DNA of 64,000 bases from Candidatus Latescibacterota bacterium. GTDB lineage: Bacteria; Latescibacterota; UBA2968; GCA-2709665. The position numbers and the translations under genes are program-made. The stretch lies in the NCBI GenBank assembly GCA_965237675.1, contig OZ250150.1, positions 3,424,001 to 3,488,000 on the forward strand. Reading direction: 5' to 3'. Positions 32,016 through 40,731 of this stretch are shown piece after piece (the first letter of the stretch is position 1; each line of letters begins with the position of its first letter). The notes under the pieces are model-generated. The model did no database searches. It was not told the DNA's origin and was given only the letters and a program-made list of their open reading frames with translations.

Positions 32016-33002
32016 TCAGGGCAGGCGTTTGCCGAAGTTCTTTGCGAATTCCAGAAAGTCCGGAAAGTCGACCCGTCCGTTCCCATTCAGGTCGTAGATG
32101 GCGTTGTCGGTGTTGAAGGCCTGGGCAAAGCCGATGAAGTCACTGAATCCGATTTCCCCGTCACCGTCGAAATCCGCCCGGGAGTCGCCATAGACAACGA
32201 CGGCCGTTCCGGAGAGCGAGACGGCAATGCTGCTGTTTTCCGGGTCGTTGCTCAGAATAGTGATGGTGCCGGAGAAAGGGCCGGCCTCCACGGGGGTGAA
32301 GGTGATTTCGACCTTCGCGCTGTCTCCCGCCGCAACGATTAGTTCGGTTTGACTGACGGAGACCCCGTCGAGGTCGGATTGAATGTTGGTAATGTCGAGG
32401 GCGTTTTCGCCGGTATTCTTCACGACCAGGGTCAAGGTCCTGGATTCTCCCGCTGGAACGTCCTCACCAAAGTCGAGTGATGAATTGGAAATATTGATTG
32501 CAGGCGGCAGGACGGTCAGCAGTTGGCGGATACGCGCGGCCGTGGCGCTAAGGCCGGATGCGGTGCGCCCCCCGATGTGGCGGACGATCCCTTCTCGGTC
32601 CGCGACTAACAAAGTGTGAACACCGAGGGTGGTCTGAACGTTGCGGCCGGCCTCCAACAGCAGCGGGAATGTGATCGAGGTCGCTGCCTGAAAGCCTTGA
32701 AGTTGCGACTTGTTGCCATTATATAGGTCAAGCCCCAGGACCGTTACGCCATCGTCCTGGAACGCCTTCCAGATCTCTTTTTCTATGGACGGACCCGCCG
32801 CCCTGCACGTAGGTCAGTTATGGCCCAGGTAATAGAGGACCAGGACACTGCCCTTGTAATTCGCCGGGGTGTAGGTTTTTCCATCCAATCCCGTCAGCGA
32901 GAAGTTGGGTACTGCATGGTCGACCTGCTGGGCTTCCGTGGGCCCCAACGGGTAGAGTCCCAGAACCAGCAGGAATACGACAAACGTAGCGATTCGACTC
33001 AT
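32016..33002 (-). CDS. Secreted selenoprotein: AhpC/TSA-redoxin domain (U63-P-T-C66) + Ig-like (ASH/choice-of-anchor D-like) domain + dockerin/EF-hand-like C-terminal domain, 328 aa
   Basis: ORFs 32814..33161 and 32016..32657 share one frame separated only by TGA at 32814-32816. Read-through gives VLVLYYLGHN-U-PTCRAAGPSIEKEIWKAFQDDGVTVLGLD..ITFPLL. RBS GGAGG precedes ATG 33002; signal peptide present. Confidence 0.85.
32782..32816 (-). promoter_or_regulatory. Candidate bacterial SECIS element
   Basis: mRNA UGA-CCUACGUGCA-GGGCGG-CGGGU-CCGUCC: a 6-bp stem starting 10 nt after UGA, with a G-rich apical loop. Confidence 0.6.
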
Positions 33003-33036
33003 CGCAATCCTCCATTGAGAGAGTGTGTGGCCTGCG

Positions 33037-34620
33037 TCAGAAATGGGTTTTAATTCGCATTTCAAGTCCATTGAATGGCAGCACCTGATAGCAGGTGCCC
33101 GATGTACATGCGGCGCCGCCGCGCCTGCGCCCGGCGAAAACGAGGGCTTCGTATCGTTCAAGGAAGCGGACGTTCAGATTGACCGCCAACCAGGTGCGCG
33201 TCCCGGTCTCAATCCGATCCGCCGTTGCGCCATCGTCCACTTCAAACGGATCGTTGGTGCGGTCCAGAACAAGAGCGGCACCCATGCCCGACGAATGCTG
33301 ATACGAGGCCTGGGCAAAGACATCCCGGAACGCCGGTTCGTTTTGTGGTAGCCTGGCCGCGCGCCGGACCTGCAGATTGAATCCCAGGACATCCCCGCGG
33401 GGTGTAATGGATTCGACCCCCACGCCAGCGATTCTGTGCTTCCCGATCCCCTTCAGTTCGTCTTTTCCCCAGTCGACGAACAGGTTGGTTGAGATCGCGT
33501 GGCCCCGATCTTCCGACGGGAGGTCGACGTCCACGCCTAAATACCGCTCGTTGAAGGTTTTTACGAAGCCGGGCGCCAGTTCGTTCTCTCCCGTGCTTAT
33601 GTTGGCCGTCAGCGTGCCCAGGCCGAATAGCGTATATGTGGCTTCCGCCTGATAGCCTTTTTCGGTATCGGCAAGCAGGGCGTGGGTAGATCTGTTGAGT
33701 AACACAGCCGAATGTTCACGAACCAGGGATGGGGGATCGTTGAAACTGAAGGCGAAATTCCGATAGTCTTTATATTCCACGCTCAGGCCCAGGTTTGAAA
33801 TGCCGGAGTTGGCGGAAAGATAGAGGGCGCTTCCGTCCACGTGAATGTCCTTCAGCCCGGCATATTCGGCGTAGACGGTCGCGTAGACGTCCGGCCGGCC
33901 CGATGCTTCGAATGCGGGAGTCATGTCGAGTTCCAGGAAACCGGACCATGTGCGGGTTGAGTCAAGCCTGCTGGCATGATGGCTGACGGCCGTGACACCT
34001 GTCTTGATCGGGTTGGTGGGGCGTAACGAGATCTCGCCCCCGACGAGCCAGTTGTCCCTCCGAGGTATCTCGCGCAGAGGGTCTCCCGCCCGTACCGCGG
34101 GCGGAATGTCGCCCAATACGGGACGCCCGATCAGGGCTTTGGCCTCGGCTTGCCGTCCCGACCAGGTGGCTATACCGCCCTCCAGGTCTCGCGACGGCGA
34201 ATAGCGACGCCGGTATTGAGCGCTCTCCAGTATCACCCCCGGGAGATCGAAGGCCCTGAGCGTGATTCCCCGGCCCAGTATGGCGTAGTAGTTGCCCGCG
34301 ACCAGTTCGGTGGGTCCGCGATTCCACCGCAGGTGCTTCTGTGAAATATGCACCACCTGGTAGTCAACCGTTGAAAGCTGCGAGCCCGGGGCGGGGTGCC
34401 GCCACGAATTGAAGATTTCCGCCCGGATTCCTGCCTGAAGTCCGTGCCGGTTATAATCGACATCGAACTGCTCGTAAAGTGTGGAGACCGCCAGTGAATC
34501 CCCGCCCGGTACGCGGCCGCGCTGGATTTCGGTCAGACTGAAGGCCGTGACTTGCGCGGATGACGGGGTCGCGTTGAGGAGCAAAAGGAGTGCTCCCAGG
34601 CTATTTCTCAGCGTGGGCAT
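33037..34620 (-). CDS. DUF6029-like outer-membrane beta-barrel protein with C-terminal CxxxxC
   Basis: Signal peptide; GNYYAILGRGITLRA, EYKDY..NDPPSL..EH, G.RRGG..CTSGTC..V..FNG; C-terminal Phe strand (LEMRIKTHF). Family recognised from memory. Confidence 0.75.
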   Translation of the reverse strand: MPTLRNSLGALLLLLNATPSSAQVTAFSLTEIQRGRVPGGDSLAVSTLYEQFDVDYNRHGLQAGIRAEIFNSWRHPAPGSQLSTVDYQVVHISQKHLRWNRGPTELVAGNYYAILGRGITLRAFDLPGVILESAQYRRRYSPSRDLEGGIATWSGRQAEAKALIGRPVLGDIPPAVRAGDPLREIPRRDNWLVGGEISLRPTNPIKTGVTAVSHHASRLDSTRTWSGFLELDMTPAFEASGRPDVYATVYAEYAGLKDIHVDGSALYLSANSGISNLGLSVEYKDYRNFAFSFNDPPSLVREHSAVLLNRSTHALLADTEKGYQAEATYTLFGLGTLTANISTGENELAPGFVKTFNERYLGVDVDLPSEDRGHAISTNLFVDWGKDELKGIGKHRIAGVGVESITPRGDVLGFNLQVRRAARLPQNEPAFRDVFAQASYQHSSGMGAALVLDRTNDPFEVDDGATADRIETGTRTWLAVNLNVRFLERYEALVFAGRRRGGAACTSGTCYQVLPFNGLEMRIKTHF

Positions 34621-35137
34621 CTGCGTTTGCCTCGGCGTCTCCGGGCTTTGAAAAGAGCGACTCTACTGCGGCCAGTAACGCTTCGGCGTTTTTCGAATTG
34701 TATCCGACCTGCCGGAGCGTAATCTCGCCATTCTGCGTGATCAACAGCGTGGTTGGCAGGACATTGACTTGCATTCGCCGCATCACGCCGCTGTCGGAGT
34801 CCAGGGCGATGGGGAAGCTGACGTTTCGCGCCCGGAGAAAGGGTTTCACCCTGTTCTGGCCTCGTGGCCCGTCCACGTTGATGCCAAGTACCGTGAGTCC
34901 GGATTTTCCGTATTTCTCGTGGATCTTCTGAAGTTTGGGCATCGCCTTGACGCAGGGCTTGCAATAGGTCGCCCAGAAATCCAGAAGCACCGGTCCTTTC
35001 GTCAGAAGGGTTTTGAGGTTGACCCGTTCGCCCTGCAGGTTCCGGAGGTTGAAGTCGGGCGCGGAGGCGGCATCCGAGGATGCGACGCCGAGGACGATGG
35101 AGGCGATTGCAACGAACAATGGACGATTCGATTTCAT
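34601..35137 (-). CDS. TlpA-family disulfide reductase, exported
   Basis: Signal peptide, APDFNL, LDFWATYCKPC, VLGINVD, VLPTTLLI; overlaps the next gene by 20 nt. Confidence 0.9.
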   Translation of the reverse strand: MKSNRPLFVAIASIVLGVASSDAASAPDFNLRNLQGERVNLKTLLTKGPVLLDFWATYCKPCVKAMPKLQKIHEKYGKSGLTVLGINVDGPRGQNRVKPFLRARNVSFPIALDSDSGVMRRMQVNVLPTTLLITQNGEITLRQVGYNSKNAEALLAAVESLFSKPGDAEANADAHAEK

Positions 35138-37014: not shown

Positions 37015-38472
37015 TTAATTTCTCACCGCGATATCAACCGGTTTGCCCTGGGCGAACTCCGCTTCGACATTGCTCAGGCCGAAAAGGGTCGCGGAAAGGT
37101 CTCGGAGGGAGAGGGGTTCGGTAACGCGCAGACCCGCCGGCAGGCGGGGACCGATGAGAAGCGCGCGGTTGCCTGCCACATCCAGTAAGGCCAGGGTCGT
37201 CCGGTTCTGATAGCGGTGATGCTCCAGTACGACTTTCCGGATCTGTTCGATCGTATTGCGGCTGTCGGATCCGCCGGACAATTGAAAAAGCATCAGATCG
37301 GGTTGCGCCCTGGGAAGACAGGCAAGGACAAGCGAACTCACGAAGGCGTTCTTGAGTTCCAGGTTCTGATCGGAAGAAACGAGGGTCCTGACGACGAGCC
37401 GCGCCAGGACTTTGTTTTTGACGATTTTGTTGATTTTAAGTTTTTTCGGGGTGAGCGTCGGGTAGACAACATTGTCGATAAATGCCTGTGACCTGCCCTC
37501 CGACCTGGCTTCGTCCAGTGCAAGGCGGATTTTTTCCGCCGCCTGGTCTAAAGCGGAAGCCCGCACCGAGAGACACCCGAATTTCTTGTATTTCTTGTGT
37601 TTGCTGCGGTCCGGCGGGGCGCGATCGTCGAGATAGAAAGCCAGTGTGCGGGTACGGGTTTTGTCGTTAAGGGCGCGATTGTGATATTCGAAAAGGGTCG
37701 GGTGTGCGAGTTTGTCTCCCTTCAGCGCGTCGTCGCGGCCGGTCAGCAGGGTGGCCAGCCATCGTTCTGGCGGATTCGAAAAGGGCACGGTCTCCAGAAG
37801 GGTTCCCTGCGCGAGCAGGCTCTCGTCCAGCGTTGAATCGGATGATCCGGATTGCGCATGCATGATTGCGATTGCGAGTAGCGCCGGGGGGAAGTCCGCA
37901 CCCTCATAGACAAACCGATTGAACGCGGTTTCGATTCTTGCCCTCTGTTCCGGCATAATTTGCACATCAGGATTTCGCGGCCGCCTCTGAGCCGGCTCCC
38001 CGCGTTGCCCGGTTCCACGTCGCCGGCCAGGACCCTGTCGCAGTCCAGGTTCCCGACGTTGTCCAGGGCCCCTTCGCGTCCCGAAGATGCCTGCGATCGC
38101 CTCGCCGAAAGCCGCGCGCAGATCCCCATTCGACGCTTCCCTGGCCTTTATGAAAAAGTGTCTGAATCGCTCCCGCTCCTGCGGGAAGAAGTCATCCCAG
38201 TGTGTCAAAGAGTTAAGTATATAAGTCCTTATCGGGAGGGGAAGCCGGCGAAACGTCTCCTCGTTCCCCTTGACCAGGTCGTAGGCGCCAGTGGGGAGGT
38301 TGGAGAACTGGTCTCTTTGAAGTGGACTGAGATCAACGCCCCCGCCGCCTCTTCGACCTCTTCCGCCTCCGCCCCTTCGTTGCGCAAGCGTGTCCTCACA
38401 GGCAAGCAATAGGACAAGAAGGGTTGCCACGAGCGATATTATTCCTTGAGATGGTCTGGGGTAAACGGTCAT
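37015..38472 (-). CDS. Hypothetical exported protein with Arg/Gly-rich repeats
   Basis: Signal-peptide-like N-terminus, RBS GGAGG, 485-aa ORF; no recognisable family. Confidence 0.65.
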   Translation of the reverse strand: MTVYPRPSQGIISLVATLLVLLLACEDTLAQRRGGGGRGRRGGGGVDLSPLQRDQFSNLPTGAYDLVKGNEETFRRLPLPIRTYILNSLTHWDDFFPQERERFRHFFIKAREASNGDLRAAFGEAIAGIFGTRRGPGQRREPGLRQGPGRRRGTGQRGEPAQRRPRNPDVQIMPEQRARIETAFNRFVYEGADFPPALLAIAIMHAQSGSSDSTLDESLLAQGTLLETVPFSNPPERWLATLLTGRDDALKGDKLAHPTLFEYHNRALNDKTRTRTLAFYLDDRAPPDRSKHKKYKKFGCLSVRASALDQAAEKIRLALDEARSEGRSQAFIDNVVYPTLTPKKLKINKIVKNKVLARLVVRTLVSSDQNLELKNAFVSSLVLACLPRAQPDLMLFQLSGGSDSRNTIEQIRKVVLEHHRYQNRTTLALLDVAGNRALLIGPRLPAGLRVTEPLSLRDLSATLFGLSNVEAEFAQGKPVDIAVRN

Positions 38473-38643
38473 TTTTCGCCTCCCCGAGCGAAGGTCAAGG
38501 AATTACGTACATGGTTTGGTTGCGGACTCTGCTTCGCGGCCGATTTTGTCAGCCGTAGACGATCGATTCCGCTGCTTTTGTCGCCCGCCGCGCCGTCGTG
38601 AACGAGGGCAGGACCGTCGCGCGAAACCGGGCGGGACGGTCGT

Positions 38644-39420
38644 TTAAAGGTGTTCTCGAAGCCAATATAGGATTTCGGCGCGGGCCGCCGGGTTGTTCAG
38701 GAGAGCCGGACCGTTGGCTGTGCCCTGGTATCCGCTGACCCGAACCGGCTCCCCGGTACGCTGTGCCAGGATTTCGGAAGAGGTATACGCGTACCCGTCG
38801 CCGTGGGCCGCCATGAACAGGATCGAGCGCGGCCGAAAGTTCGGGACACTGTTGCCGAGCAGGATATCCTGACTGAGCCGGGTGATGAGGGATATGACGA
38901 CCGACGTCCTGACGTCCGGATAGATGCCGGAACTGACGTAAGCAATGTTGGCGCCAAGCGCCGCGCCCACGAGTCCGATACGCCCTGCGTCGACGTCGGG
39001 ACGTTTCTTGAGCCAGCCGAGCGCACCCTCGATATCCAGGGGCATTTTGTTGATATCTTCCGTCTGGAAGGTGCTGCGCGGAAAATAGACGTCGTTCCGG
39101 AAGGTGCTCCCTCCATGTCCTCGAATGTCGTAGGCAAGCACATGGTATCCCTCGTTGGTCAGTTCCGGCACGAAGGGAATCCAGATATCGAGGTTCTGGT
39201 CGAAGGGGTGGATGAGGACAACAGCGGGCCGCCGCCCCGTCTGGCGGTTGGAGGTAAACCAGGCTGCAAGAATGCGAAAGCCGTCGGGAGTCGTAAATGA
39301 GACCGCCTCGCCCGTAACCATCTCCGGCGGCGTCGTTGGCTCGCCGTCGGTTGGCTGTCTGCCGCAATCCGTCGAAAGTAGGGCGAACGCTATGAGAGCG
39401 AGATATTTGCAAGGTGCCAT
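38644..39420 (-). CDS. Alpha/beta-hydrolase-fold lipoprotein with degenerate catalytic residues
   Basis: Signal ending at Cys (STDCG), AVVLIH, LAYDIRGHGGS, RIGLVGAALGA. Confidence 0.8.
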   Translation of the reverse strand: MAPCKYLALIAFALLSTDCGRQPTDGEPTTPPEMVTGEAVSFTTPDGFRILAAWFTSNRQTGRRPAVVLIHPFDQNLDIWIPFVPELTNEGYHVLAYDIRGHGGSTFRNDVYFPRSTFQTEDINKMPLDIEGALGWLKKRPDVDAGRIGLVGAALGANIAYVSSGIYPDVRTSVVISLITRLSQDILLGNSVPNFRPRSILFMAAHGDGYAYTSSEILAQRTGEPVRVSGYQGTANGPALLNNPAARAEILYWLREHL

Positions 39421-39909: not shown

Positions 39910-40731
39910 ATGTTTCGGATTACCCTGTGTTGGATGGCGGCGGTAGCACTCATCGTTCCGGCCGTTGTCGCGGACGGGTACGATCAACGACCTATCGAGA
40001 CCCCCGGCATCTCCCCTCGCGCCGCCGGCGCAGGTCGGAAGGCGGGCCCTTCGAAGGTGCGCAACCGGGCGGGGATGGAATTCGTGTTGATTCCAGCGGG
40101 TAAATTTCGCATGGGATCGGCGAGCGACGAGGCCGGAGACCAGGAAAAGCCGGTAACGGAGGTGACGATTGGGCAGGCATTCTACATGGGAAAGCACGAG
40201 GTTACCCAAAAGCAATGGGAAAAGTTAATGGGGAACAGACCTTCGGACTTCAAGAGATGCAATGACTGTCCAGTGGAACATATTTCATGGAACGACGCGC
40301 AGGCGTTTGTCCGCGCGCTCAACGACATGGAGGATTCGAAGCGGTATCGATTGCCCACCGAGGCCGAGTGGGAGTACGCCGCTCGCGGAGGGACGGCTGG
40401 GGACCGATACGGTGCCAACCTGGATGCAATCGCATGGTATGACAAGAATTGCGACGAACGTCCGCACCCGGTCGGGAAGAAAAAGCCGAACGGATTCGGA
40501 CTGTACGACATGCTTGGAAATGTCTACGAATGGGTCCAGGACTGGAAGGGCACGTACCCTGGCGGAGAAGTGACAGATCCGCGGGGCCCCGCCCGGGGAA
40601 AGTTCCGGATGATGCGGGGCGGAAGCTGGGAGAACGGCGCACAGAGTTGCCGGGCTACGCACCGCCTCGACGCGTCGCCCGGTTTCCGGATCCACGTTCT
40701 GGGCTTGCGGGTACTGATGGAAGCCCGTTAA
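39910..40731 (+). CDS. Formylglycine-generating enzyme (SUMF1/FGE-sulfatase) domain protein, exported
   Basis: IPAGKFRMGS, HEVT, RLPTEAEWEYAAR, NGFGLYDMLGNVYEW, RGGSW; lacks the catalytic FGE Cys pair. Confidence 0.92.
   Translation: MFRITLCWMAAVALIVPAVVADGYDQRPIETPGISPRAAGAGRKAGPSKVRNRAGMEFVLIPAGKFRMGSASDEAGDQEKPVTEVTIGQAFYMGKHEVTQKQWEKLMGNRPSDFKRCNDCPVEHISWNDAQAFVRALNDMEDSKRYRLPTEAEWEYAARGGTAGDRYGANLDAIAWYDKNCDERPHPVGKKKPNGFGLYDMLGNVYEWVQDWKGTYPGGEVTDPRGPARGKFRMMRGGSWENGAQSCRATHRLDASPGFRIHVLGLRVLMEAR

Follow-up and report, generated by a model that had tools for sequence, protein, structure and literature searches.

A redoxin gene interrupted by an in-frame UGA in a Latescibacterota genome: a probable exported selenoprotein with an Ig-like domain and a dockerin-like tail

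When a gene caller reports two neighboring open reading frames (ORFs) where a thioredoxin fold would require one, is the stop codon between them a termination signal, a mutation, or a codon for selenocysteine (Sec, U)? We addressed this question for a locus in a 64,000-nucleotide stretch of the genome of Candidatus Latescibacterota bacterium (GenBank assembly GCA_965237675.1, contig OZ250150.1, positions 3,424,001 to 3,488,000 of the forward strand), which we refer to as the window. A preliminary description, made from the sequence alone, had proposed that two ORFs at this locus are one redoxin gene broken only by a TGA. Indeed, the table 11 ORFs at 32814..33161 and 32016..32657 share one frame (minus strand, as for all window features below unless stated otherwise), and translation of 33002..32016 with TGA read as U gives 328 codons plus a terminal TGA (32018..32016), with the TGA of codon 63 (32814..32816) as the sole internal stop. 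A Shine-Dalgarno-like hexamer, GGAGGA (33008..33013), precedes the ATG (33002) by 5 nt, and the MSRI... start is common to the orthologues, which are full length at 326-328 codons in 12 same-genus genomes. Codon 63 sits in the sequence VLVLYYLGHN-U-PTC-RAAG, as the first position of a U-P-T-C motif; the last residue of the motif, Cys66 (32805..32807), occupies the resolving position of UxxC and is invariant in alignments of 19 (A1) and 25 (A2) sequences. Taking the evidence below together, we consider it very probable that 33002..32016 is a genuine single selenoprotein gene in which UGA-63 is read as Sec. We call it the Sec-redoxin gene, and it is a member of a large unannotated Latescibacterota family.

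How codon 63 is read can be judged from its homologues. A six-frame search of our genome and 60 relatives recovered the protein in 61/61 genomes, and nearly all matches that span the N-terminal domain carry one TGA. The codon aligned to residue 63 is TGA in 37 and TGT in two of the 39 matches in loci L018-L047, which include the window copy. In 20 further regions it is TGA 18 times and TGT twice, the two TGT regions having been chosen on purpose after the six-frame search had shown them to be stop-free, and 15 class-level matches (30-44% identity) have 13 TGA, one TGC, and one TGT. From genus to class, this amounts to TGA in 68 and a Cys codon in six of the 74 matches, with no other residue (0/74) and never Trp; kin are not independent in these counts, though the pattern reaches sequences of ~30% identity. 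A phylum-wide sample gave a domain match at E ≤ 1e-15 in 64 of 151 genomes, all in families f1-f4 and none in the other ten families sampled. Among the 96 matches listed from this sample, 91 have one TGA, four have no stop, and one has a TAA (our own table count).

These counts also bear on whether the locus is a pseudogene, that is, a redoxin gene whose frame was disrupted by nonsense mutation or through a sequencing error. A single in-frame stop does resemble a fresh nonsense mutation, and one relative with a TGT copy (L091) has a TAA two codons upstream of its Cys codon and may be decaying. Yet the TGA recurs at the same codon across genera, families, and orders, the frames downstream of it are intact and remain conserved among homologues of only ~30% identity, and the stop falls exactly at the catalytic Cys position. 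The independent assemblies agree as well: across the UGA, the contigs of two other studies (covering 32788-32958 and 32747-33100) are identical to the window, which excludes an assembly error. We therefore regard a pseudogene as extremely improbable.

Sec-redoxin copies number one to three per genome across a whole Latescibacterota class, and the window genome has a single copy. At four loci of same-genus genomes (L022, L025, L026, and L027, in G004, G011, G009, and G002, respectively), a second paralogue lies in tandem directly downstream of the orthologue, to which it is ~65% identical, and carries the motif U-(N/D)-L-C in place of U-P-T-C. Another tandem arrangement, at locus L090 (G054:C178:900-3200), joins a Cys (TGC) copy to a Sec (TGA) copy. 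In both, the codon is still followed by a GGACGGUCCGUCC hairpin, and the pair may reflect a recent switch between Sec and Cys.

Public annotation presents the family differently. All of the public proteins retrieved with the full-length query (54/54) are fragments covering 14-74% of it, none has PF00578 or PF08534, and their names include “choice-of-anchor D domain-containing protein” and “DUF1573 domain-containing protein”; the public protein sets hold post-UGA fragments only. Several of these fragments come from metagenome-assembled genomes labelled Gemmatimonadota, and the taxonomic labels appear inconsistent. Such records, like the two ORFs obtained with table 11, are in keeping with two separate genes, one for a secreted peptide of 62 residues that ends at the UGA and one for a “choice-of-anchor D” protein initiated from a TTG within the frame (32657). 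With two genes, however, codons 64-116 would be untranslated because they are located between the UGA and the internal start, yet this stretch holds the invariant residues C66, P71, G90, G96, F112, and P113, has a coding-type pattern of codon positions, and is predicted by the structural model to be needed to complete the thioredoxin fold. The second piece would also have no signal peptide, and the homologues with a Cys codon read through as one protein. Two genes thus seem very unlikely, if somewhat less so than a pseudogene. The residues just named, together with G138, are the post-UGA columns that are invariant in A2, and codons 64-83 of the 12 same-genus orthologues differ 35, 2, and 52 times at codon positions 1, 2, and 3. 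Because of these invariant columns and this pattern of differences, we conclude that the post-UGA stretch is under protein-level selection.

The genome (5.6 Mb, 58% G+C) also encodes the machinery for Sec insertion. ARAGORN found one tRNA-SeC (tca) at C1 4984019-4984116, and both selA (561.2 bits, cut-off 268) and selB (358.1 bits, cut-off 242) adjoin it. With selD (363.1 bits, cut-off 125), every component that we sought was found, and all three protein models scored above their NCBIfam cut-offs. The selD gene (C1:309559-310482, plus strand) itself carries one in-frame TGA near its N-terminus, three residues before K-V-S-P, which we take to be the Cys17/Sec position of SelD. The TGA is followed by a hairpin, AGUCC-GGUC-GGACU, with its loop at +18..+21. 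In a formate-dehydrogenase-like frame (C1:3919526, plus strand; ...NCSRA-U-HAPTVAGL...), the TGA is likewise followed by a hairpin, with a stem of 7 bp and GGUCU as its loop at +19.

UGA is reassigned in some uncultured bacteria, and a reassigned code or near-cognate suppression could in principle insert Trp, Gly, or Cys at codon 63 instead of Sec. We give this a negligible probability, since TGA is the terminal stop of this gene and of most orthologues, the neighboring genes, including those for a barrel and a TlpA-like protein described below, read normally under table 11, the Sec pathway is complete and includes a Sec-type selD, and only Cys alternates with UGA among the homologues.

We also tried to estimate the selenoproteome with genome-wide scans for open frames that contain a TGA and, just after it, a hairpin with GG or GGU in the loop; these scans returned 203 and 84 TGA matches. 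The matches were mostly clear non-coding frames of a GC-rich genome, and control codons gave matches in similar or larger numbers, so the estimate was dropped. The formate-dehydrogenase-like site was the only recognizable match of the scans. The crude scan also returned five near-identical frames, at C1:595350, 2561699, 2702844, 4699718 (+), and 2266019 (-), which share the same 70-residue translation apart from one residue in one copy and are probably part of a repeated mobile element.

Bacterial Sec insertion would call for a selenocysteine insertion sequence (SECIS) next to the UGA, and the stem-loop noted in the preliminary description, GGGCGG-CGGGU-CCGUCC starting 10 nt after the UGA, is present (+11..+27; 32787..32803). 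It is the minimum-free-energy (MFE) structure predicted for a 45-nt segment that starts with the UGA (-9.3 kcal/mol), and can be drawn either with 6 bp and a CGGGU loop or with 4 bp and a GGUC loop. In the second form, GGUC (32795..32792) lies at +19..+22, as it does in the SECIS of Escherichia coli fdhF, which is also a hairpin just downstream of the UGA. Unlike the fdhF element, the window stem is much shorter, has no evident bulged U, and lies in a different coding context. Across 50 distinct Sec sequences, native stems near +20 average 6.14 bp vs. 3.54 bp after synonymous recoding, with a mean MFE z of -0.84, and in 28 of the 50 the native stem is matched by ≤5% of 300 recodings (our own count). 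The corresponding values for four Cys homologues are 4.75 vs. 3.34 bp and z = +0.62, with 0/4 at or below 5% of recodings. Distant relatives retain a hairpin at this position as well, built from unrelated stem letters that encode other residues.

We next turn to what the gene encodes. The preliminary description placed the TGA at the first position of a thioredoxin-fold CxxC, and the AlphaFold2 model (25-sequence alignment; mean predicted local distance difference test, pLDDT, 89.4) agrees: U63 follows strand 53-59 at the N-terminus of helix 64-84, and the remainder of the thioredoxin fold comes after it. The redoxin domain spans residues 27-142 (32577..32924) and is matched in Pfam by AhpC-TSA (58.2 bits, cut-off 26) and Redoxin (43 bits, cut-off 26.6). 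A Foldseek search of the PDB placed ResA at the top (1su9; TM 0.85, root mean square deviation [rmsd] 1.9), along with other thiol:disulfide interchange proteins (TM 0.81-0.85) and a putative disulfide isomerase from Bacteroides (E = 2.8e-12); Bcp/PrxQ structures ranked lower, at TM ~0.70. Like the ResA/TlpA/CcmG reductases (e.g., Bacillus subtilis ResA, PDB 1su9 and 1st9), which it superposes at an rmsd of ~2 Å, the window protein carries a putative N-terminal export signal and has its active site where helix 1 begins, and its conserved Pro113 is presumably at the cis-Pro loop position of thioredoxins. Unlike ResA, it has Sec in place of the nucleophilic Cys (UPTC), carries extra immunoglobulin (Ig)-like and dockerin-like modules, and has no evident link to cytochrome c maturation. 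The Sec-redoxin domain is ResA-like in fold, and it is no ResA orthologue.

A real selenoprotein with this domain might nonetheless be a Prx/GPx-like peroxidase acting on envelope peroxides rather than a disulfide reductase. Its best Pfam match is, after all, AhpC-TSA, NCBIfam models for thiol peroxidase, PrxQ, and glutathione peroxidase match weakly (18-23 bits), Bcp/PrxQ structures do appear in the Foldseek list, and selenols are good reductants of peroxides. Before U63, however, the Prx signature PxxxTxxC/U, as given in the accessible text of PMC13188914, is absent: the residues are L-Y-Y-L-G-H-N, with Leu at -7 and Gly at -3, and a UxxC occupies the thioredoxin CxxC position instead. Structures of the ResA/TlpA type also fit better than the peroxidases by the TM values above, and the neighboring operon gene encodes a TlpA of the classical WCxPC kind. 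We therefore consider a peroxidase unlikely, and reductase activity would be the more plausible assignment.

The preliminary description further drew attention to the combination of a signal peptide with Ig-like and dockerin-like modules. The putative signal peptide (~residues 1-25; 32928..33002), which resembles those of the Sec export pathway, was recognized by inspection, with MSR, a hydrophobic core, and TEA before QQ; the model has a low-confidence helix at residues 4-15 and a disordered stretch at 14-23, and the N-termini of homologues are similarly hydrophobic. The Ig-like beta-sandwich (residues 167-265; 32208..32504), with model strands at 169-268, is of the choice-of-anchor D/HYDIN-VesB/DUF1573 type: it scores 51.3 bits against the HYDIN/VesB-like Ig family PF22544 (Pfam cut-off 25.5) and 51.1 bits against choice-of-anchor D NF012200 (NCBIfam cut-off 45), and DUF1573 also matched. 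The tail (residues 276-322; 32037..32177) consists of two calcium-loop-plus-helix repeats, with helices at 286-295 and 313-322 in the model; it scores 28.6 bits against EF-hand_1 (Pfam cut-off 25.4) and matches calmodulin-type calcium loops down to E 5e-8. Among the relatives, the number of Ig repeats ranges from zero to ~seven with the tail unchanged; the window protein has one.

The tail resembles a type I (cellulosomal) dockerin in having two tandem calcium loops, each with a helix, in ~55 C-terminal residues, and the genome also encodes cohesin-domain giants, with six cohesin-domain matches in very long frames (280-1711 residues). It differs from type I dockerins in its profile score, and binding to cohesin is only a prediction. 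Searched with tblastn, the 59-residue tail has 117 places in the genome at E ≤ 1e-3, of which 74 are within ~15 codons of a stop. Other tail-like matches fall in the N-terminal region of long frames, four of them clustered at C1:2393690-2406582, and a further place is C1:5054814-5054990. The genome has 28 Dockerin_1 matches (E ≤ 0.001), and the Sec-redoxin tail is not among them. For extracellular enzymes of Latescibacteria that are affiliated with cellulosomes, the accessible text of PMC7081726 refers to Farag et al. (2017). Our literature search found nothing on dockerins and cohesins together in Latescibacteria.

Several results pull in the other direction and have to be set against an exported, dockerin-tailed Sec-redoxin. 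Gene structure, conservation, fold, and Sec machinery are observations, and the insertion of Sec at UGA-63 itself is a step that we infer from the sequence. The hairpin is short (4-6 bp) and its stability is that expected by chance (z = 0.15; 109 of 200 dinucleotide shuffles fold as well or better), so its weight rests on the comparison with relatives and not on energy. Pairing in a fixed register is found in 67.1% of cells vs. 39.7-56.3% with the partner slid (46 distinct sequences). Of 500 shuffles, 21 attain the observed covariation score and 63 attain the observed number of pairs with both sides changed; covariation in this one register is modest, since the stem shifts in register between subgroups. 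A search of 32650-32900 against Rfam at a permissive threshold gave one chance match to a long non-coding RNA (15.5 bits vs. 60) and nothing else. At the protein level, the domain scores 45.9 bits against the NCBIfam ResA subfamily NF002854, where the cut-off is 170, and the tail is below the cut-offs of both Dockerin_1 in Pfam (15.8 bits vs. 22.9) and dockerin_GC in NCBIfam (24.7 vs. 29). As for expression, the sole match in RNA libraries is a 213-nt contig of a close relative from a “sponge metagenome” metatranscriptome; it has nine differences, aligns to 32080-32289 in the Ig/tail part, downstream of the UGA, and is no proof of transcription, as DNA carry-over is possible. The parts of the gene outside this contig are uninformative as to transcription.

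What, then, does the Sec-redoxin work with? It is the last of three tightly packed genes on the same strand. The first (34601..35137) encodes a TlpA-like periplasmic redoxin with the active site W-A-T-Y-C-K-P-C (Pfam AhpC-TSA 83.6 bits, Redoxin 72.3 bits) and overlaps by 20 nt the second (33037..34620), which encodes a DUF6029 outer-membrane beta-barrel of 527 residues and leaves 34 nt to the start codon of the selenoprotein gene. The Sec-redoxin domain and the TlpA-like protein share 27% identity, and U63 aligns with the first Cys of CKPC. The only two cysteines of the barrel are Cys505 and Cys510 (A-C-T-S-G-T-C; codons 33091..33108).

This arrangement is conserved. At 20/20 same-family loci, including that of the window, the gene immediately upstream of the Sec-redoxin is the barrel gene, and 51 of the 61 relatives have a DUF6029 barrel, 47 of them as a single match. 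At 10 further loci centered on the barrel, a TlpA-like gene is adjacent in 10/10 and a Sec-redoxin gene in 4/10, one of which has two copies; among these loci, the four genomes inspected from the large genus g6 have no Sec-redoxin gene next to the barrel. The Cys pair of the barrel is kept at all 20 same-family loci and all 10 further loci, down to ~34% identity, and is invariant in alignment A3.

The barrel model is many-stranded (pLDDT 72), with the segment around the Cys pair (503-512) below 50. Foldseek matched it only to generic large barrels (usher pores, AlgE, OprD; TM ≤ 0.51), so no specific family can be assigned from structure; the accessible text of PMC9603273 relates DUF6029 to the Wzi barrel by HHpred. 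When the barrel and its TlpA-like neighbor were co-folded (ESMFold2, no alignments), the score was 0.73 (runs of 0.73, 0.76, and 0.70), and the best of three controls scored 0.00. The runs share at least 90% of contacts, with a partner pLDDT of at least 77, and the pass mark is one reached by 51 of 78 solved complexes, two of 108 mismatched pairs, and seven of 44 blind neighboring gene pairs. The contacts join the active-site region of TlpA (56-64) to turns of the barrel that include 506-508, so that the Cys505/Cys510 turn is part of the predicted interface; by the topology suggested by the barrel model and the co-fold, these would be every periplasmic turn of the barrel. The pass supports binding between a TlpA and the barrel without demonstrating it, and does not tell which thioredoxin-fold paralogue binds. 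We know of no solved TlpA-barrel complex. Elsewhere in the genome, one DsbD-type membrane domain is encoded.

Further along the window, two ORFs of 485 and 287 residues (37015-38472 and 38549-39412) have no Pfam family at E ≤ 0.001, and an FGE-sulfatase-type gene is found at 39910-40731 on the plus strand.

Based on these features, we propose the following sequence of events. The ribosome would read UGA-63 as Sec by means of SelB, tRNA-Sec, and the downstream hairpin, and the product would be exported by its N-terminal signal peptide. The predicted mature protein consists of a ResA/TlpA-like domain with a selenol nucleophile at the start of helix 1 (U63-P-T-C66), an Ig spacer, and a dockerin-like module with a double calcium loop. 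It may act as an extracytoplasmic thiol/selenol-disulfide reductase, in which U63 would attack a substrate disulfide and C66 would resolve the selenenylsulfide. The oxidized U-C pair could then be re-reduced by the envelope reducing pathway that also supplies the co-transcribed TlpA-like protein, and the tail might tether the Sec-redoxin to a cohesin-type partner. Its activity as a reductase rather than a peroxidase, its substrate, the source of its electrons, and its destination, periplasm or surface, are all put forward here as provisional.

A more ambitious version would make the selenoprotein the outermost member of a dedicated envelope redox chain that runs from a DsbD-type protein of the inner membrane to the TlpA-like redoxin, then to Cys505/Cys510 of the barrel, and finally to the dockerin-tethered Sec-redoxin. 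Here the TlpA-like redoxin would dock at the invariant Cys505/Cys510 turn, in the opening of the DUF6029 barrel on its periplasmic side, forming a thiol/selenol conduit that serves or crosses the outer membrane, and selenium could keep the terminal redoxin active in an oxidizing exterior. We hold this chain to be doubtful and offer it as a speculative possibility.

How does the Sec-redoxin compare with known proteins? A “Prx-like thiol:disulfide oxidoreductase” and a “Redoxin family protein” (pfam00578/PF08534, UxxC) appear among the computationally predicted bacterial selenoproteins in the accessible texts of PMC9312934 and PMC13188914, and the GOS survey counted 225 “Prx-like 1” UxxC selenoproteins (PMC2398784, accessible text). 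The Prx-like family as defined in the accessible text of PMC9312934, by pfam00578 with UxxC or UxxU, would take in the window protein, with its AhpC-TSA score above and its U-P-T-C. Compared by published description only, it shares with the Prx-like and redoxin selenoproteins the PF00578/PF08534 thioredoxin fold, Sec as the first residue of UxxC, and the existence of Cys homologues; it differs from them by its signal peptide, Ig-like domain(s), dockerin-like tail, and operon with TlpA-like and DUF6029 genes. The preliminary description had called the protein unusual, and this is so for the fusion to Ig and dockerin-like modules, which is new, and not for UxxC Prx-like/redoxin selenoproteins themselves, which were already known as predicted families.

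A second comparison is with the C-terminal part of Mycobacterium tuberculosis DipZ (PDB 2hyx, 5cyy), which also has an extracytoplasmic TlpA-like domain followed by a beta-sandwich and which Foldseek aligned over 306-328 columns. The superposition is poor (rmsd ~21 Å, TM 0.35), so the two are alike in domain order only. DipZ, moreover, is a Cys protein, without Sec, that is fused to a membrane CcdA-like part.

We found no literature that joins selenoproteins with dockerins or describes a Sec-redoxin family in Latescibacterota, although supplementary tables may list related sequences. The new parts are the fusion to Ig and dockerin-like modules and the conserved operon with a TlpA-like reductase and a DUF6029 barrel that has an invariant Cys pair.

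For the Latescibacterota, the first consequence concerns annotation. Gene callers systematically split genes of the Sec-redoxin family at the UGA, and these genes occur in one to three copies per genome across a class; the selenoproteomes of these uncultured bacteria are therefore undercounted. The wider interest is in the conserved link to an outer-membrane barrel with a Cys pair and to the TlpA that is predicted to dock with it. An exported, probably tethered selenol redoxin beside such a barrel points to thiol chemistry in the envelope or at the surface that has no characterized model, and the system offers a concrete case in which to ask why bacteria use selenium beyond the cytoplasm.

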